Source: Alphaproteobacteria bacterium
Lineage (GTDB): Bacteria; Pseudomonadota; Alphaproteobacteria; Bin95
Reading direction: 5' to 3'
Length of the DNA: 64,000 nt
Assembly (NCBI GenBank): GCA_963665325.3
Contig: CAXXWS020000003.1
Location: 576,001-640,000 of the forward strand
A program made the translations under genes and the position numbers. Of this stretch, positions 12,792 to 40,646 are shown in pieces. The notes under the pieces are model-generated. The model was not told the origin of the DNA and made no database searches. It was given only the letters and a program-made list of their open reading frames with translations. Within the stretch, counting starts at the first letter, position 1, and each line of letters starts with the position of its first letter.

Positions 12792-13802
12792 TTGCGCCTC
12801 GGCATTCTGGACCAGTCGATCGCCGCCGAAGGCCGTCCCCAGGCCGAGGCGATCCGCAATACGGTTGCGCTGGCCGAGCTGTGCGAGCGGCTCGGCTACG
12901 ACCGCTTCTGGGTCTCGGAGCACCATAACCACCCGACCATCGTGGGCACCGCGCCGGAGATCCTGGTGGCCGGCATGGCGGCGCGGACCTCGCGCATCCG
13001 CATCGGCAGCGCAGGGGTGATGCTGCCGCACTACGCGCCCTTCAAGGTCGCGGAGCAGTTCCGGGTGCTGGACGCGCTGGCGCCGGGGCGCATCGACCTC
13101 GGCCTCGGCCGTGCGCCGGGCTCCGACGGGCTGACGGCCTTCGCCCTCAATCCGCGCGCCAATGAGAGGCCGGCGGAGTTTCCGGCGGACATCCGCGACC
13201 TCCAGGCCTGGCTCAAGGCTGAACCGCTGCCGGAAGGGCACCCGTTTCGCAGGCTCGGCGCCTTTCCGCAGGGGGACACGGCGCCTCAGATATGGCTGCT
13301 GGGGTCGTCCAACTATGGCGCGCAGGTGGCGGCCTGGTTCGGCCTGCCCTACGCCTTCGCCTGGTTCTTCACCGACGGGCACGGGGCAAGGGAGGCGCTC
13401 GGCCTCTACCGCGAGCATTACAAGCCGAGCGCGGACTGGCCGGAACCGCATTCGGCGATCTGCGTGTGGGCGCTGGCGGCCGACAGCGAGGAGGAAGCCC
13501 AGTTCCATTTCGGCCCCCGCCTGCGCTGGCGTCTCGGCCGCGACCGGGGCGTATTCCTGCCACTGGAGTCCGCCGAGAAGGCTGCGGCCTACGAGTACAG
13601 CGACGGCGAGGCCGCACGGCTGGCGCGATTCCGCGAGCAGGCCGTCGTCGGCCGGCCGGAGCGCGTGGTCGAGCGCATCGCAGCCATCGGCGAGGACCTC
13701 GGCGTGGACGAGATCGCCATCGTCACCTGGACGCATGACGAAGCCGCCCGCCGGCGCAGCTACGAGCTCATCGCCGAAGCATGGGGCATCGCGCCCGGTT
13801 AG
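12792..13802 (+). CDS. Luciferase-like (LLM class) flavin-dependent oxidoreductase
   Basis: GYDRFWVSEHH, RIGSAGVMLPHY.PFKVAEQF and GRIDLGLGRAPG; TTG start. Confidence 0.92.
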   Translation: MRLGILDQSIAAEGRPQAEAIRNTVALAELCERLGYDRFWVSEHHNHPTIVGTAPEILVAGMAARTSRIRIGSAGVMLPHYAPFKVAEQFRVLDALAPGRIDLGLGRAPGSDGLTAFALNPRANERPAEFPADIRDLQAWLKAEPLPEGHPFRRLGAFPQGDTAPQIWLLGSSNYGAQVAAWFGLPYAFAWFFTDGHGAREALGLYREHYKPSADWPEPHSAICVWALAADSEEEAQFHFGPRLRWRLGRDRGVFLPLESAEKAAAYEYSDGEAARLARFREQAVVGRPERVVERIAAIGEDLGVDEIAIVTWTHDEAARRRSYELIAEAWGIAPG

Positions 13803-14111
13803 CCCGCATTTCTCACCAGGGTCATGGTCTGCGCGGTGCTGTCGGGCCGGCAGGGAAGGAGAGCCGCGCAGCGCGATGCGGGGCATCGGGCAAGCGGTTC
13901 GACGCACCCTGCCGGCCCGACAGCACCGCCCTTCGGGTCGCGCCCAGGCGTCCGCCCGCGGCGGCGTAAACGCCGCCATCCAAACAAACTGCCGCGTTGC
14001 GCGCGGCGTCGCGGGCCTCAACCGTAGGCTGTGCTACGCTTTTCGGCCCGCTCCTTGCGGAGCGAACGCCTGGACAGCGACGCAGGCCGTGACCCTGGTG
14101 AGAAATGCGGG
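13803..14111. mobile_element. MITE (309 bp) with 22-bp perfect TIRs and TTAG target duplication
   Basis: CCCGCATTTCTCACCAGGGTCA at 13803-13824 and its reverse complement at 14090-14111; TTAG at 13799-13802 and 14112-14115. Confidence 0.88.
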
Positions 14112-15083
14112 TTAGCCCGCTGTGCGGCGGACGAGGTTCAGGAGGTCGACCAGGTCGAGAATGCGCGCGACCCAGGGCTCGCGCGGGTTGAAGCCGGGAC
14201 CGGCATCGCCGAGAAGGCGGCCTTCGAGCGCGTCCAGCAGGCGCGTGAGGCGCCGGTCATGGATGCCGAGCCGGGCCTGCACGGGATCGGCCGCCACCCC
14301 GGCGAAAGCGGTCAGCATGGCCGGCACCAGCACCAGCGCGCCGGTGAGGCCGGCGACCGCGACTGTCGAGGCCTTGGCCGGGAAGACGCTGTACCAGAGC
14401 CCGCCCGCGGCTGCGCCGAGCGGAAAGCCCGCGATTGCCGCCTGTTGCGCCAATGCCTGCGCAGCGACCGGGCCGAGCGACAATGCGCCCGGCGTCCATT
14501 GCCGGAAGGCTGCCGCGCCGATGCCGGCAGAGACGAGCGAAGCGGCAAGCTCGGCAACCGCGAGCCGCGCCTCGCCGTAGCGCCCGGCCGCCCGCTCGGC
14601 CCAGGCCCTGAAGCCGGGCGATGCAGACGCCGTGGAAAGCCGGTCCAGCAGGACGCTCACCGCCGGGTCGCGGGCGATCTCCTCGGCAAGCGCGTCGCGT
14701 TCCGAGTGCCGTCGGGGCTGTCCATAGGGCAGCTCCAGCAGTTCGGTGAAGAGCCGCCATTCAATCTCGCGCGCCACGTCGGTGACGAACACCTTTCGGC
14801 CCCGGCGCATCCCGGCGGCGGCCCCTTCATATCCGCCGCGCTCGGCGAGCCGGGCGGCGGCCTCCAGGGCAAGATTGGGCCCGGCGAGCGCGATGTTGGC
14901 GGGGGCCCTAAGCAGGTCGCGCCCGACCGCCCGGCGGTGGAGTTCGAGCGTTCCTCTCAGGCGGAAATTGCGCCGGACGAAATCCGGCGCCATCTCCCGG
15001 CGGCGTCGGATATAGCGGCCGATGGCGCGGCGCACCGTTGCATCGGCTTCCTCGGGCCCGAGATATGGCGCAACATCGCCCAT
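14112..15083 (-). CDS. Conserved hypothetical membrane protein (DUF6635-like)
   Basis: Coding-like ORF with hydrophobic C-terminal half and DPVQARLGIH.RRL motif; co-oriented with dinB. Confidence 0.65.
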   Translation of the reverse strand: MGDVAPYLGPEEADATVRRAIGRYIRRRREMAPDFVRRNFRLRGTLELHRRAVGRDLLRAPANIALAGPNLALEAAARLAERGGYEGAAAGMRRGRKVFVTDVAREIEWRLFTELLELPYGQPRRHSERDALAEEIARDPAVSVLLDRLSTASASPGFRAWAERAAGRYGEARLAVAELAASLVSAGIGAAAFRQWTPGALSLGPVAAQALAQQAAIAGFPLGAAAGGLWYSVFPAKASTVAVAGLTGALVLVPAMLTAFAGVAADPVQARLGIHDRRLTRLLDALEGRLLGDAGPGFNPREPWVARILDLVDLLNLVRRTAG

Positions 15084-27492: not shown

Positions 27493-27521
27493 TTGCCCGG
27501 AAGGGGCTTCCGCCCTATAAT
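27493..27521 (+). promoter_or_regulatory. ssrA promoter
   Basis: TTGCCC-17 nt-TATAAT. Confidence 0.7.
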
Positions 27522-27526
27522 GGCGG

Positions 27527-27790
27527 CGCCGGGCATGCTCGGCTATGGCGATAAACGCTATGCGAAATAAGCGTTGCGGACCCGGGGGCAGTACCCGGCG
27601 CCTCCACCATCCACGGGGGCGAACCAGGATCGACGTGCGTGGTAAAGGCATGGTCTTCGCTCGGCATGGTACCACCGTTATCGGGCCGCAACTCAAGTGC
27701 GAATGACAATGAGGTCGCACTCGCTGCCTGATCGCTGATCGGGTAAGCGCGGTTTGGAGGGCACCGGGCAACAGAAGCCCTCCACCCGCC
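27527..27790 (+). ncRNA. ssrA: Two-piece (circularly permuted) tmRNA; tag ANDNEVALAA
   Basis: Acceptor piece ends CGCCTCCACCA (27609); coding piece starts GGGGGCG (27615); tag ORF 27699-27731; outer ends approximate. Confidence 0.96.
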
Positions 27791-27866
27791 GCGCGCAACG
27801 CGGCGATTCGAACACCTGCCGCGAGCAACGCGGCGGCGCCGCACCGTTCCGGGGGGCGGGGGAGCG

Positions 27867-36170: not shown

Positions 36171-37822
36171 CCGACCGGCTCGCAATTGCCATCGCCCAGA
36201 TCAATCCGACCGTGGGCGATGTCGCCGGCAATGCGGACCGCATCCGGCATGCGCGCGCCGAGGCCGGCAGCGCCGACCTCGTGGTCTTCCCGGAACTGGT
36301 GCTGTCCGGCTACCCGCCGGAGGATCTGGTGCTGAAACCTGCCTTCCAGGATGGCTGCCGTGACGCTTGCGAGGCGCTGGCGAAAGAGACTGCCGATGGC
36401 GGGCCGGCCCTGCTGGTTGGCCTGCCCTGGCGGGAGAACGGGCGGCTCTACAATGCCGTCGCGCTACTCGACGGCGGCGAGGTCGCGGCCGTCCGCCACA
36501 AGGCGCTGCTGCCGAATTACGGCGTATTCGACGAGAAGCGCGTGTTCGACGCGGGCGAGATGCCGGGGCCGGTCTCCTTCCGCGATGTGCGCATCGGTGT
36601 GCCGATTTGCGAAGACATCTGGCAGCCCTCGGTGGTTGAGTGCCTGGAGGAGAACGGCGCCGAAATGCTGCTGGTGCCGAACGGCTCGCCCTTCGAGGCG
36701 ACCAAGGACGATGTCCGGCTGAATATCGCCGTCGAACGCGTGGTGGAGAGCGGCCTGCCGCTTGCCTACGTCAACCAGGTGGGCGGCCAGGACGAGCTGG
36801 TGTTCGACGGCGCCTCCTTCGTGCTCGGGCGCGACCGGGCGCTTAGGGCGCAGCTGCCTTCATGGGTCGAGAGCGTGGCGCTCACCCGCTGGGAACGCGG
36901 CGCGGACGGCATGGAATGCGTCGGCGGCCCGATGGCGGAGGGCGGGGACGACCTCGCCGACATCTATGCCGCGATGATGCTGGGGCTCCGCGACTATGTG
37001 AACAAGAACCGCTTTCCGGGCGTTGTGCTGGGCCTTTCCGGCGGCATCGACTCGGCGCTCTCGGCGGCGGTGGCGGTGGATGCGCTGGGCGCGGATCGGG
37101 TGCGCTGCGTGATGATGCCCTCGCCCTACACCTCGCAGGCCTCGCTGGACGATGCGCTGGAGGCGGTCACGGCGCTTGGCGCCTCCTACGAGACGATCTC
37201 GATCGAACCGGCGATGGGTGCATTCGGCGCCATGCTGGCCGGCGCCTTCGGCAATCGCGGCGAGGACACGACGGAGGAGAACATCCAGGCCCGCGCGCGC
37301 GGCCTTACCCTGATGGCGCTCTCCAACAAGTTCGGCCACATGGTGCTCTCGACAGGCAACAAGTCGGAAATGTCGGTCGGCTACGCGACCCTCTACGGGG
37401 ACATGTGCGGCGGCTACAACGTGCTGAAGGACGTGTACAAGACGACCGTCTTCGCGCTCTCCGAGTGGCGCAACCGCAACCGCCCCGAAGGCGCGCTGGG
37501 GCCGGCCGGCCGCGTGGTGCCGCAGAACATCATCGACAAGCCGCCCTCCGCGGAACTCCGCCCCGACCAGACCGACCAGGACAGCCTGCCGCCCTACGAC
37601 GCGCTCGACGACATTCTGGAATGCCTGATCGAGGACGAGCTTTCAGTGGCCGAGATCGCCGCGCGCGGGCATGCGGTCGAGACCGTGGAGCGAGTCTGGC
37701 GGATGCTCGACATCGCGGAATACAAGCGCCGCCAGGCGCCGCCCGGCGTCAAGCTTACCCGCCGCGCCTTCGGCCGCGACCGCCGCTATCCCATCGTCAA
37801 CGGCTATCGGGGCCGGGTGTAG
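36167..37822 (+). CDS. nadE: Glutamine-dependent NAD+ synthetase
   Basis: Nitrilase domain (FPEL, K, ICED) plus SGGIDS, TGNKSE and YKRRQAPPG. Confidence 0.97.
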   Translation: MTDRLAIAIAQINPTVGDVAGNADRIRHARAEAGSADLVVFPELVLSGYPPEDLVLKPAFQDGCRDACEALAKETADGGPALLVGLPWRENGRLYNAVALLDGGEVAAVRHKALLPNYGVFDEKRVFDAGEMPGPVSFRDVRIGVPICEDIWQPSVVECLEENGAEMLLVPNGSPFEATKDDVRLNIAVERVVESGLPLAYVNQVGGQDELVFDGASFVLGRDRALRAQLPSWVESVALTRWERGADGMECVGGPMAEGGDDLADIYAAMMLGLRDYVNKNRFPGVVLGLSGGIDSALSAAVAVDALGADRVRCVMMPSPYTSQASLDDALEAVTALGASYETISIEPAMGAFGAMLAGAFGNRGEDTTEENIQARARGLTLMALSNKFGHMVLSTGNKSEMSVGYATLYGDMCGGYNVLKDVYKTTVFALSEWRNRNRPEGALGPAGRVVPQNIIDKPPSAELRPDQTDQDSLPPYDALDDILECLIEDELSVAEIAARGHAVETVERVWRMLDIAEYKRRQAPPGVKLTRRAFGRDRRYPIVNGYRGRV

Positions 37823-37896
37823 GCGCGGGGCCCCGCCCCCGCCGGGGCCCGGCTCAGCATTCCACCACAGCCGCGCCCGGGAAAAAGGCTCCCTGA

Positions 37897-38110
37897 CCGT
37901 CATCCCCTATCGGAAGAACACGCAAGAGCAGGCCAAAGTGGTTCGCAAGGGCCCTCTACCGGGCGGCGGACCTGCGTCGGACAGGCCGTCGGCAAGCTCA
38001 AACGCTTCAAGCGCATTGCACTGCGCTGCGAAAAAACTCTCACAAACTTCAGTGCCATCGTCGCTCTCGCGGCCGCCTTCATTTTGATCAAATCCGTCCA
38101 CAGGACCTGA
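37897..38110 (+). pseudogene. IS5-family transposase 3' remnant with probable right end
   Basis: Frameshifted VIPYRKN...QAVGKLKRFKRIALRCEKTLTNFSAIVALAAAFILIKSVHRT*. Confidence 0.8.
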
Positions 38111-38205
38111 TCTTTAAGGCTTCGTTTAATTCAGAGACGTTCGGAGTTTTGTGGCACGTTGACATCCTTCCCGTCCTGCACGATGGGGCATGCCGCGCAA
38201 TCCGG

Positions 38206-38592
38206 TCACCACAGACGAATGACGCCGAAGCCGTCGAATACGGAATCGACCGAGACGATCGGGACGTCGCGCGCCAGAGCCTGTGCGGCAAGCATCCGGT
38301 CGAACGGGTCGCGATGAGAACCGGGCAGGCGCCCGGCGCGCTCGGCGTCTGCAACGCCGAGCGCCAACTCTTCGAACCCCTGTCCGGCAATGTGAGATGC
38401 GACATCGAGCGCCACGGCCTCGCACCCCGGCAGTTTGCCGATCCGGAACTTGGTGGCGATTTCCCAGGCGGACGCTGCGCTGACCGTGATGTCATTCGAC
38501 TCATCCGCGATCGCGCCGCGCGCCGGTTCCGAAAGACGCGCGCTGTCCGCGAGCCACCAGAGAAAGGCATGGGTGTCCAGAAGCACCTGCAC
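38206..38592 (-). CDS. vapC: VapC (PIN domain) toxin
   Basis: LLDTHAFLWW, SAASAWEIATK and HRDPFDRML.AQA; GTG start. Confidence 0.94.
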   Translation of the reverse strand: MQVLLDTHAFLWWLADSARLSEPARGAIADESNDITVSAASAWEIATKFRIGKLPGCEAVALDVASHIAGQGFEELALGVADAERAGRLPGSHRDPFDRMLAAQALARDVPIVSVDSVFDGFGVIRLW

Positions 38593-38594
38593 CG

Positions 38595-38828
38595 CTATCC
38601 GGATTCCCATGCCGCCAGCTCTTTCTCCGGCAGCGGATCGAAGAAGGCATCGGGAACGACCAGCTTCCCCTTGAGGATGTCGGGCTGCCGCTTCACTCGG
38701 GCCTTGCAGGCGACGAGACGCGCGACGGGTTCGCCGCGACGCGCGATCACCACGTCCTCGCCGGCCTCGACCCACGCCAACAACCGGGAAAGCTCGGTTT
38801 TCGCCTGATGAACATTGACGACGCGCAT
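38595..38828 (-). CDS. Phd/YefM family antitoxin
   Basis: VNVHQAKTELSRLL..VEAGEDVVIARRGEPVARL. Confidence 0.93.
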   Translation of the reverse strand: MRVVNVHQAKTELSRLLAWVEAGEDVVIARRGEPVARLVACKARVKRQPDILKGKLVVPDAFFDPLPEKELAAWESG

Positions 38829-38851
38829 CGACTTTCACCGCCCTTCAGCAT

Positions 38852-38890
38852 ATCTAGCTAACATTATGGCTAGATTTTCGTCCGCGTCAA
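38852..38890 (-). promoter_or_regulatory. TA promoter with operator dyad
   Basis: Minus-strand TTGACG-16 nt-CATAAT; ATCTAGC..GCTAGAT dyad (38852-38875) straddles the -10. Confidence 0.7.
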
Positions 38891-39056
38891 CATGGCTGTG
38901 CCACTAAACTCCGAACGACTCTGTTTAATTCGGCGAATAGTCTGTCGCCCGCTTTGTCTTTCTTGCGTCCGGATATCTACAAAGTCGAAGTATTGAAGAG
39001 TGCGCAGGCTGGTCGGCTCTCGGCCGCGGGTCAATCGAAACGCGGCTGCCATTGCA

Positions 39057-40646
39057 TCACTCGATCCGGAAGCCTTCATAGCCGGCGGCGGCCACGGCGT
39101 CGCACTTCTCGATATAGGCGGGGAGGCCGCCGATATAGGGCATGAAGACGCGCGGCTTGCCGGGCACGTTGGCGCCGATATACCAGCTCGAACAGGTGGA
39201 GCGCAGCGAGAGCGAGGCGGTCTCGCTGGCATGTTCCACCCAGGCGTCCTGGGCCTCCGGTTCCGCCTCCATCCGCCGGGCGCCCCGCTCATTCATTGCG
39301 GCAAGGCAGTCGGCGATCCAGTCCACATGCTGCTCGATCGAGGGCAGCATGTTGGTCAGCACCGAGGGGCTGCCGGGGCCGGTGACGGTAAACAGGTTGG
39401 GGAAGCCGGCGACCGTGAGGCCGAGATAGGTGCGCGGCCCCTCTTCCCAGGCGTCGCGCAGCCGGCGCCCGCCCGCGCCGCGAATGTCGATGCGCTCCAG
39501 CGCGCCCGTCATGGCGTCGAAGCCGGTGGCGAACACGATGGCGTCCGCCGGCCACTCCCGCCCGTGCGCGCGCACGCCGCCCGGCGCGATCGCCTCTATG
39601 GGACGTTCCGAGACGTCCACCAGCTCGACATTCGGCCGGTTGAAGGTTGCGTAATAGCCGGTATCCACGCAGAGCCGCTTGCAGCCGATGATGTTGGTCG
39701 GCGCGAGCAGCCGGGCGGTCTCCGGGTCGTCCACGATGTCCGCGATCTTGGCGCGCACGAAATCGGCCGCCGTGCGGTTAGCCTCCTCCTTGAACAGGAG
39801 GTCGGCGAAGCAGCCGAGGAAGGACAGCCCGCCATGCGCCCAGCGCCGCTCGAATTCGGCTTTGCGCTCTTCTTCCGGGGTCCTGAGCGCGTGCAGGGGC
39901 CGGTAGTCGAGGTCGATCCCGGACGGCATCGAACGCGCGCGGGCGCGGAGCTCCGGATAGTCCGCCTTCACCGCCGCCACGAAGTCCGGCGGGAGCGGGC
40001 GGTTATGCGCCGGGATGGAATAATTGGCCGTGCGCTGGAACACGGTCAGATGGCTGGCCTCGCGGGCCAGGATGGGGATCGACTGGATCGCGGAGGAGCC
40101 GGTGCCGATCACCGCCACGCGCTTGCCGGCGAGGTCGACGCCCTCATGCGGCCAATGGCCGGTGTGGTAGGTGGGTCCCGCGAAGCTGTCGCGGCCCTCG
40201 AAATTGGGCAGGTTGGCGGCCGAGAGGCAACCGAGCGCCATGACGCACCAGCGCGCCCGGAAGCACGTGCCCGCCTCGGTCTCCAGCTCCCAGCGGGCAT
40301 CCGACTCGTCGAAGGCGGCCGTCACGACCCTCGTGTCGAAGCGGATGTCGCGCCTCAGGTCGAAGCGGTCGGCCACATGGTTGGCGTATGCCAGGATTTC
40401 CGGCTGCGCGGCGTAGCGCTCGGTCCAGGTCCACTCCTGCTGCAGGACCGCATCGAACTGGTAAGAATATTGGACGCTCTCCACGTCGCAGCGCGCACCG
40501 GGATAGCGGTTCCAGTACCAGGTGCCGCCGACATCGCCGCCGGCCTCCAGCACGACCGCCCGCATGCCGAGCCCGCGCAGCCGGTGCAGCATGTACATGC
40601 CGGCCAAGCCCGCGCCGACCACGATGGCGTCGAATTCCTCCGCCAA
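39057..40646 (-). CDS. Baeyer-Villiger monooxygenase (cyclohexanone monooxygenase family)
   Basis: GAGLAG, GGTWYWNRYPGARCD, FAGPTYHTGHWP fingerprint and GTGSS; TTG start. Confidence 0.95.
   Translation of the reverse strand: MAEEFDAIVVGAGLAGMYMLHRLRGLGMRAVVLEAGGDVGGTWYWNRYPGARCDVESVQYSYQFDAVLQQEWTWTERYAAQPEILAYANHVADRFDLRRDIRFDTRVVTAAFDESDARWELETEAGTCFRARWCVMALGCLSAANLPNFEGRDSFAGPTYHTGHWPHEGVDLAGKRVAVIGTGSSAIQSIPILAREASHLTVFQRTANYSIPAHNRPLPPDFVAAVKADYPELRARARSMPSGIDLDYRPLHALRTPEEERKAEFERRWAHGGLSFLGCFADLLFKEEANRTAADFVRAKIADIVDDPETARLLAPTNIIGCKRLCVDTGYYATFNRPNVELVDVSERPIEAIAPGGVRAHGREWPADAIVFATGFDAMTGALERIDIRGAGGRRLRDAWEEGPRTYLGLTVAGFPNLFTVTGPGSPSVLTNMLPSIEQHVDWIADCLAAMNERGARRMEAEPEAQDAWVEHASETASLSLRSTCSSWYIGANVPGKPRVFMPYIGGLPAYIEKCDAVAAAGYEGFRIE

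Follow-up and report, generated by a model that had tools for sequence, protein, structure and literature searches.

The window analysed here is a stretch of 64,000 nucleotides from the genome of an Alphaproteobacteria bacterium (G000:C4:576001-640000; genome of 5.58 Mb, 67% GC). Its positions 38133-38922 form a mobile insertion cassette of an apparently undescribed transposon family, the only content of which is a toxin-antitoxin (TA) operon, phd-vapC, encoded on the minus strand. A phd/yefM-type antitoxin gene (38595..38828, 77 aa plus stop; Pfam PhdYeFM_antitox at 38598-38828, E 3.5e-9) is located upstream of vapC, the gene of a PIN-domain toxin (38206..38610, 134 aa plus stop, frame open; Pfam PIN at 38209-38610, E 2.7e-15). 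In the arrangement of a type II Phd/YefM-VapC pair, phd and vapC overlap by 16 nt and share one promoter, TTGACG-16-CATAAT (-35 at 38885-38890, -10 at 38863-38868, minus strand), which was the one sigma-70-like site detected on that strand by the promoter scan, versus 0.2 expected in shuffles. The -35 box begins 8 nt inward of the right repeat. A palindrome with 7-bp arms, ATCTAGC-N10-GCTAGAT (38852-38875, read from the sequence), covers the -10 box, is conserved in the C2 and bin52 copies of the cassette and is likely the operator. All remaining open reading frames (ORFs) of at least 40 aa overlap phd or vapC, and the only Pfam matches inside the cassette were Phd and PIN, with no transposase. 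Both Pfam and the promoter scan thus agree with a preliminary description of the locus, made from the sequence alone, which had listed only a Phd antitoxin, a VapC toxin and their promoter, with the -35 box just inside the right repeat.

The operon is enclosed by inverted repeat arms of 26 nt (38132-38157 and 38898-38923), which a repeat search found to be complementary at 24 of the 26 positions (92%) with a spacing of 740 nt, as had been described. Direct copies begin at 38124 and 38923, and the initial nine bases of both read GTTTAATTC. Because the first base of the arm varies (C, G, T or A) among related elements, we set the start of the element at AGAG, and the duplication is therefore 9 bp long. 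The cassette itself was thus recovered, with an extent of 790 bp (38133-38922, ends AGAG...CTCT) instead of the 792 bp first proposed, and the flanking duplication was retained at a length of 9 bp instead of the 7 bp given for unshifted ends. From left to right, the cassette border consists of the left copy of the target-site duplication (38124..38132, GTTTAATTC), the left terminal inverted repeat (38133..38157, plus strand, AGAGACGTTCGGAGTTTTGTGGCAC, of the class termed type 1 below), the right terminal inverted repeat (38898..38922, minus strand, reverse complement AGAGTCGTTCGGAGTTTAGTGGCAC) and the right copy of the duplication (38923..38931, GTTTAATTC, read from the sequence); the length of the left copy was fixed by the comparison with the family. 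The repeats scored 31.4 and 28.6 bits, respectively, against a sequence model, R1, built from an alignment of 20 ends (A1), in which the first base is variable and AGAG...GTGGCAC is conserved. Within these refined ends, the arms agree at 23 of 25 positions.

Chance does not account for the inverted repeat. When 26-mers were paired in inverted orientation within 3 kb at 24 or more matching positions, they occupied six position bins in the window and none in each of five mononucleotide shuffles; these six bins correspond to registers of the cassette repeat and to one other palindrome at 13.8-14.1 kb. In the whole G000 genome, just four places match the repeat with six mismatches or fewer, and control patterns (reversed or complemented) gave 47 matches, all at 7-8 mismatches.

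The same TA cassette was observed at other sites. In a scan at one genome per species, which returned 12 loci (8 in metagenome-assembled genomes (MAGs) of the same genus and 4 in unrelated taxa, the latter close to the chance number estimated for 19 fixed bases), the MAG contig L048 was found to carry a cassette with both repeats and an identity of 96.2% over 791 bp. This copy begins at the final base of tRNA-Ser(CGA), has CCCACCGCC on either side and is directly followed by the end of another element; the TA pair is thus found at a second site with another 9-bp duplication. In a contig from the public run X5, the sequence that ends exactly before 38133 is a third, different flank. G000 itself carries the TA pair once more, on contig C2 (125783-126535, 95.75% identity over 753 bp), where it adjoins a gene that reads as a truncated resolvase and a copy, with a deletion, of another insertion sequence (IS); a contig from run X2 shows the C2-type junction. 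The phd and vapC frames are intact in all three cassette copies. Between the window and bin52, phd differs by 4 synonymous and 5 non-synonymous changes, and vapC by 5 and 6, respectively. Judged from the junctions in these sequences, the cassette has moved. The TA module also exists outside the cassette, as seen from homologous pairs without repeats in G015, G008 and G001. The G015 pair is 82% identical, with homology stopping at the vapC stop codon and at the -35 box, which would fit a resident TA module captured between transposon ends. Plasmid homologues of vapC carry the annotation 'VapC family toxin', and a search of plasmid DNA with the cassette returned six records, none of which covered 80% of it or had the repeats.

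The ends are shared by a family of cassettes. A degenerate pattern of the repeat was present in 9 of the 37 genomes of the taxonomic family (G000 and 8 of the 16 others of its genus), while none of the 20 genomes of two sister genera contained it and the backwards control gave no match. R1 gave 39 matches in 12 of the 17 genus genomes at E<=1. We distinguished four types of end, numbered for this analysis only: type 1 reads AGAGnCGyTCGGAAtTTtGTGGCAC, and type 2 reads AGAGGCGTTCGGAATTTCTGTGGGAA, with its first 17 nt in common with type 1; G000 also holds looser type-2-like and type-3 forms. As the preliminary description had anticipated for a spreading element, further copies thus exist, with the same and with different cargo and with new duplications. 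Neither of the two findings that it had named as refuting the mobile reading was made.

Ten elements with paired ends were delimited. Eight of these have a perfect 9-bp duplication, one has a duplication matching at 7 of 9 positions and one has none, and the duplicated sequences mostly differ. Besides the two phd-vapC cassettes flanked by GTTTAATTC (window) and CCCACCGCC (L048), perfect duplications were found in G008 around an AbiEii cassette (L039, CTGTAATCA), a cassette of two ORFs without family (L040 inner, CAGAAATTC), a cassette with HepT-like and nucleotidyltransferase (NTP_transf_2) genes and a nested IS21 (L057, GAGACATCC) and a cassette with HicA, DUF1902 and an ATPase fragment (L063, CGAAAAAGG). 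The remaining two perfect cases are large, namely a 15.4-kb element of G013 with identical type-2 ends (L058, GGCGGTGGG) and an 18.9-kb element of G000 (C1:166219-185094, GGCGGATGG). A 488-aa ATPase in G013 (L041) is flanked by CTTCTTGAT and CTTTTTGGT (7/9), and the outer type-2 pair of L040 showed no duplication. Single ends adjoin RES and an Xre/MbcA-type antitoxin in G007, Abi_alpha in G006, AbiEii (C23) and AbiEi with AbiEii (C13) in G004, a weak HEPN match in G013, and SIR2 (SIR2_2) with HerA in a lower-GC metagenome contig; the G007 antitoxin matched below Pfam cut-offs, and the ATPase cargo matched AAA families solely below these cut-offs. Four low-GC metagenome loci were set aside, as their common motif lies inside what looks like one gene. 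The cargo of the family is nearly always a TA or abortive-infection/defence module.

The L063 element is a hybrid, with a type-1-like variant at one end and a type-2 end at the other, and has a perfect duplication; the inner L040 cassette, of type 1, is nested inside the type-2 repeat. This hybrid and the nested insertion argue for a joint use of the two end types. Junctions between abutting cassettes consist of one arm, 9 bp and the inverted arm (L048; G003 L119; G000 C1:1303786-1303845 and C1:185071-185128). Between L036 (G007) and L037 (G011), which have similar flanks, the 9-bp spacer of the abutted ends, at the junction beside the type-1 end, is inverted (GGCGGTGGG versus CCCACCGC), possibly through recombination or template switching between the inverted arms.

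Other ends were observed in G000. At C5:129618-129773 (L002 6082-6774), a type-1 end and a type-3-like end point the same way and precede two small ORFs without family on the minus strand, in a layout like that of the window; this may be another TA-like cassette that has lost its far end. Two type-2-like ends (C1:1158217-1158242 and C1:1296750-1296845) have about 95 nt of subterminal sequence in common. One of them abuts tRNA-Ser(CGA) and is seemingly a short relic, and within the other lies an IS256-family element that is truncated and has an end of its own.

None of the type-1 or type-2 cassettes contains a transposase fitting its ends, and the R1-listed sites examined in the 17 genus genomes did not flank another fitting transposase. 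IS ends were compared by reading or by R1 scan, and nine IS types were found to have other ends or to be nested (ISAs1, IS256-like, an 883-bp IS, a 2.07-kb IS, ISL3, IS1595, IS21, IS66 and IS3). The ISAs1 end in L037 reads CAGGGGAATCGC, and PF13808 was not found in G000. The IS256-like elements have ends GGTCGTGCCCCCAGGCGTGGTGTAGGAG, with a best R1 score of 7.8 bits over 23 loci; PF00872 occurs in 10 of the 17 genus genomes, and the lone IS256-like fragment of G000, which adjoins a type-2-like end, belongs to a truncated IS that is distinct from it and has its own end. ISL3, IS1595, IS66 and IS3 have other ends, the IS21 within L057 is a nested insertion with its own repeats, and the 883-bp IS that adjoins the window cassette differs from it in its ends. 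The models for IS903-type (PF13737) and ISLre2-type (PF06782) transposases and for the IS4 N-terminus (PF13006) were not found, nor was PF01610 in G000. The 2.07-kb IS was rejected as well, with ends (CT)AGCCCAAGTTTAAC and CTAG/CTAA targets, unlike the cassette. This IS is present in 12 copies in G000 at 99.9% identity (e.g., C4:653732-655808), which suggests apparently recent activity, and an internally deleted copy (C2:126785-127810) adjoins the TA pair of contig C2.

A candidate was found in the 15.4-kb G013 element, which lies at tRNA-Ser(CGA) and carries methylase, NYN, ImmA/IrrE-type and PIN_4 genes together with several ORFs without family. In a tblastn search of its ORFs against G000, two adjacent ORFs of 361 and 265 aa proved to be a single gene of about 626 aa elsewhere, named Orf626 here, of which G000 has two full copies of intact length, at C1:166437-168314 and 1317311-1319206, and two partial copies. 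When the sequences upstream of 11 Orf626 copies were aligned, they proved to share a left end, ATAGCCGATGAAAAAATTGTGGCAA (type 4), at a distance of about 200 nt from the gene, which abuts the 3' end of tRNA-Ser(GGA) in G003 and G011 and is elsewhere preceded by a tRNA-Ser-derived 9-mer and the right end of another element. The 18.9-kb G000 element (18,876 bp) has perfect 24-bp terminal repeats, ATAGCCGATGAAAAAATTGTGTCA, with GGCGGATGG on both sides, and contains Orf626 about 200 nt inside its left end, followed by an ankyrin-repeat gene, an Eco57I/MmeI-like methylase (1354 aa) and an SNF2/PLD helicase (1112 aa).

At its right end lies an operon of 368-, 294- and 721-aa genes, in which the homologue of the 721-aa gene is broken by one TAG, leaving a longest ORF of 506 aa. 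This three-gene operon is conserved and occurs in multiple copies, some decayed (G000:C1:1323853-1327731; L058:5271-9350), and one G000 copy of the 721-aa gene adjoins a gene for a 2719-aa repeat protein. None of its three products matched Pfam, NCBIfam, PADLOC or PDB sequences. The 721-aa protein was also considered as a possible transposase. It has about 110 N-terminal residues in common with Orf626 (33-35% identity). The operon, of which it is the first protein, could be accessory or target-choosing machinery.

Orf626 was characterized from an alignment of 31 sequences (A2), which also served as input to an AlphaFold2 model (pLDDT 82.7, pTM 0.86). The alignment contains eight invariant cysteines in two clusters and invariant residues D234, D309, D345, D399, E494 and E540, and the protein comprises two N-terminal zinc ribbons and an RNase H-like core. 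The top Foldseek match was the ISCth4 transposase (probability 0.99-1.00, E 3e-3). VIA-align likewise gave ISCth4 (Z 11.5, rmsd (root-mean-square deviation) 4.1, 241 residues aligned), then Tn5 (9.4) and Hermes (9.1), followed by retroviral integrases, TnsB, IstA and MuA at 7.5-9, the upper rows being nearly all DDE enzymes. As modelled, Orf626 has a DDE transposase fold, with ISCth4 of the IS256 family as its nearest relative in structure. In the predicted three-strand sheet, D234 belongs to the first strand (228-240), and D399 follows just past strand 393-398, which would place them where the first two catalytic residues are expected.

Among the Orf626 homologues, 16 of the 31 weakly touched DUF6399 (best E 4.4e-4), for which we found no literature among open-licence papers. 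PF00872 (Transposase_mut) was absent among the 25 listed of the 29 families matched by the 31 homologues at E<=1. One distant homologue is named 'transposase-like protein' by its source, and one of the nearest Atlas clusters (score 0.95) bears the automatic name 'IS1 family transposase', which we take as no more than a lead. About 120 homologues were found in a large protein collection and others on 119 plasmid records (94 with at least 80% protein coverage), those listed being annotated 'hypothetical protein'. An Enterococcus faecalis plasmid (L123, NZ_CP110291.1) encodes a distant homologue under the annotation 'insertion element protein', between IS1216 and a predicted trimethoprim-resistance gene; 97% of the query aligns with it at 21% identity, and similar genes were found on 90 Enterococcus and 10 Staphylococcus plasmid records.

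The best explanation overall, to which we assign a probability of about 0.6, is that the window holds a non-autonomous mobile insertion cassette moved in trans, with Orf626 as the best candidate for its transposase. On this view, the phd-vapC operon, its promoter and the two 25-bp repeats inserted as a transposon-type unit and duplicated 9 bp of target, GTTTAATTC. As the cassettes encode no fitting transposase, they must be moved in trans, and this would be done by Orf626 recognising their ends. The enzyme itself is encoded on large transposons that have related ends and 9-bp duplications and are often located at tRNA-Ser 3' ends. The mechanism may be of the IS256 kind, either cut and paste or copy and paste, with the target cut at a stagger of 9 bp, and the TA pair would stabilise the carrier of the cassette. 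The transposase encoded elsewhere that the preliminary description had postulated thus has a candidate family in G000, with related ends, and we consider it fairly probable that this enzyme acts on the ends of the window cassette.

The window element is similar to other mobile insertion cassettes, such as MIC231 of Bacillus cereus, in its terminal inverted repeats, target-site duplication, passenger genes, lack of a transposase and presumed mobilisation in trans. It differs in that its cargo is a TA operon alone, that its family is devoted to TA and defence genes and that the parent transposon is not a named IS family; no description of a family of TA-only mobile insertion cassettes was found in open-licence literature. 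The preliminary description had correctly regarded it as a non-autonomous mobile element; its term, miniature inverted-repeat transposable element (MITE), is replaced here by mobile insertion cassette, as the element carries genes. Such cassettes are described as gene-carrying, transposase-less elements with IS-type inverted repeats, e.g., the qnrS2 'mic' of Aeromonas plasmids (PMC4444841). TIMEs and other Tn3-derived non-autonomous elements (PMC4133298) measure 0.26-3.9 kb, have inverted repeats in common with autonomous transposons, prefer AT-rich DNA for insertion and can form mosaics. They resemble the cassette in these features, but TIMEs have 38-bp repeats and 5-6-bp duplications where the window cassette has 25 and 9 bp, respectively. 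That report places a TA system in the autonomous Tn4662a and not in a cassette. Tn3-family transposons that carry TA pairs are autonomous, with the pair beside transposase and resolvase (PMC7157771), whereas the TA pair is the sole content of the window cassette.

Orf626 has its best structural match in ISCth4 (Z 11.5) but differs from the IS256 family in having no Pfam Transposase_mut match, about 200 additional residues and two N-terminal zinc ribbons, and the true IS256-family elements of the genus have other ends. Ends of the IS256 family generally start with G(G/A), and its duplications are of 8-9 bp. The Orf626 element ends start with A(G/T)AG, and their duplication is 9 bp, versus 8 bp for ISCth4 (PMC7780238). 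ISCth4 (PDB 6xgx/6xg8) has an RNase H-like DDE core and A/T-rich 8-bp duplications, and is reported to use copy-out/paste-in via a junction of abutted ends with a spacer, with promoter halves in the ends (PMC7780238). In our family, 6 of the 9 listed 9-mers, that of the 18.9-kb element included, have at most five G+C, in a genome of 67% GC.

In the surroundings of the cassette, nadE ends at 37822 and the gene on the other side is a 583-aa minus-strand ORF ending at 39057. The homology of 40 relatives to the flanks stops at ~37822 and ~39054, so the whole of 37823-39053 is foreign to these relatives, and nadE and the right-hand gene are not neighbours in complete relatives such as G012. The cassette lies near nadE, as first described, but not directly downstream: a 237-bp remnant (37872..38108, plus strand), the 3' part of an 883-bp IS5-family-like IS, is located in between and is a neighbour outside the cassette. 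This remnant holds a transposase C-terminus and the IS end ...AATCCGTCCACAGGACC, and matches multi-copy 883-bp elements of G011 and G005 at 85-89%; their ends read GGTCCTGTGGACGGATT, unlike those of the cassette. Three X5 contigs depart from the window sequence at 38108. One contig from run X10 joins 37827 to 39029 with eight other letters, the junction being 28 bp before the stop codon of the right-hand gene, which suggests a relative with the two genes adjacent and without IS remnant and cassette. Because IS remnant, cassette and both short flanks are all missing from this form, it does not test the cassette by itself. Elsewhere in the window, a tmRNA gene was predicted by ARAGORN at 27515-27822 (tag peptide ANDNEVALAA). 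The palindrome at 13797-14117, the sole other high-identity inverted repeat of the window, is a nested structure with 37-nt arms (89%; 13797-13833 and 14081-14117) and perfect 23-nt arms (13833-13855 and 13907-13929).

The cassette is tied to the Orf626 transposon family by its ends, its duplication length and its target, as all end types have the 9-bp duplication and tRNA-Ser sites in common. Orf626 was present in 7 of the 9 genomes with strong repeat matches and in 3 of the remaining 8, where one case is just a 32-aa fragment; this co-occurrence may be regarded as only suggestive, because the genomes are kin. Several observations weigh against mobilisation of the cassette by Orf626. By eye, the end of the G000 transposon agrees with the left repeat of the window at 14 of 24 positions, and the type-4 end (G003 form) with the type-1 consensus at 16 of 24 specified positions; with ends alike at just 14 of 24, the action of Orf626 on the cassette is something we infer. 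Of an autonomous element with the same ends, as envisaged in the preliminary description, related forms were found: the ends of the G000 transposon are related, not identical, and the sole Orf626 gene between cassette-type (type-2) ends, in G013, has one TAG and lies mid-element. Orf626 (P0041) matches no Pfam or NCBIfam transposase model (no family at E<=0.01), and its Foldseek E-values are above the 0.001 line. G006 and G010, both draft assemblies, have repeats and no Orf626 match, and G003 has Orf626 and no type-1/2 repeat. Around the large elements, many of the flanking 9-mers come from tRNA-Ser ends, and part of their duplication evidence may therefore reflect array structure. Of the cassette itself, the C2 copy has lost the repeat on the vapC side, and only some 16 nt remain of its second repeat. 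Among the 40 relatives, no locus was found to be an exact empty site for just the cassette, with the single duplication that had been predicted. Finally, the two repeats of the window differ at two positions and the three copies of the TA cassette are about 4% apart, which indicates that the window insertion is not recent.

Some of these points would also fit the same cassette moved by a different transposase, extinct here or carried on unsampled elements, with the likeness to Orf626 ends due to distant ancestry. The agreement of the ends at just 14-16 of 24 positions, the lack of an intact Orf626 between type-1 or type-2 ends and a divergence of copies that fits old activity all speak for such an enzyme. 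We nevertheless consider it unlikely, given that the 39 repeat-like sites listed by R1 in 17 genomes flank, where examined, no other fitting transposase, that the IS types checked have other ends, that type-2 ends do enclose an Orf626 gene in G013, and that the 9-bp duplication and the tRNA-Ser 3' end site are common to both systems. As a TA module without a recombinase, the cassette also resembles dif modules, and its arms might be recombinase sites of a pdif/integron-like system, with the 9 bp as crossover core and a host recombinase at work. Dif modules have XerC/XerD sites at their borders and are not known to show a target duplication. The abutted junctions of arm, 9 bp and inverted arm do resemble a recombinase site, the tRNA-Ser-end 9-mer recurs, the spacer is inverted between G007 and G011, and the cassettes are without an internal transposase. 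Isolated cassettes, however, have a half-site (one arm) per end and unrelated 9-mers (GTTTAATTC, CTGTAATCA, CAGAAATTC, GAGACATCC and CGAAAAAGG) that core homology does not predict, neither the 15.4-kb nor the 18.9-kb element was found to contain an integrase, and the associated conserved protein has, in its model, a DDE transposase fold, which together make such recombination improbable. Acinetobacter dif modules are described as recombinase-less, with inversely oriented sites, often with TA pairs, and shuffled among replicons (PMC13141974, PMC6449649). Least probable is a resident TA operon that is not mobile at all, beside which an inverted repeat arose by chance or was left by some unrelated rearrangement: homologous TA pairs do occur without repeats in G015, G008 and G001, and the region 37823-39053 is not conserved as a whole in relatives, but this reading is contradicted by the same cassette with its ends at another site, by a repeat family with no match in its control and by eight paired elements with perfect 9-bp duplications.

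Within the preferred explanation of a cassette moved in trans by Orf626, we tentatively put forward a broader picture, which we hold to be somewhat less probable than not. The cassette may be a satellite of an undescribed superfamily of DDE transposons that homes to tRNA-Ser 3' ends and builds arrays of TA and defence cassettes with 9-bp spacers by inserting beside or into its own ends, as a counterpart, made by transposition, to the cassette arrays of integrons or pdif modules, Orf626 being the Pfam-invisible enzyme, with an IS256/MULE-like core and two zinc ribbons.

The spread of TA and defence modules is usually credited to plasmids, phages, integrons and Xer modules, and these minimal cassettes show a direct route by transposon. 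The cassettes could be doubly selfish, since each cargo would poison a cell that had lost it. The Orf626 family is widespread and has no curated model, so that the elements it moves are missed by standard annotation. The material for following the family is now defined: its ends, its 9-bp duplication, the tRNA-Ser site that it prefers and, from a single complete genome, two candidate genes for the transposase, both intact.

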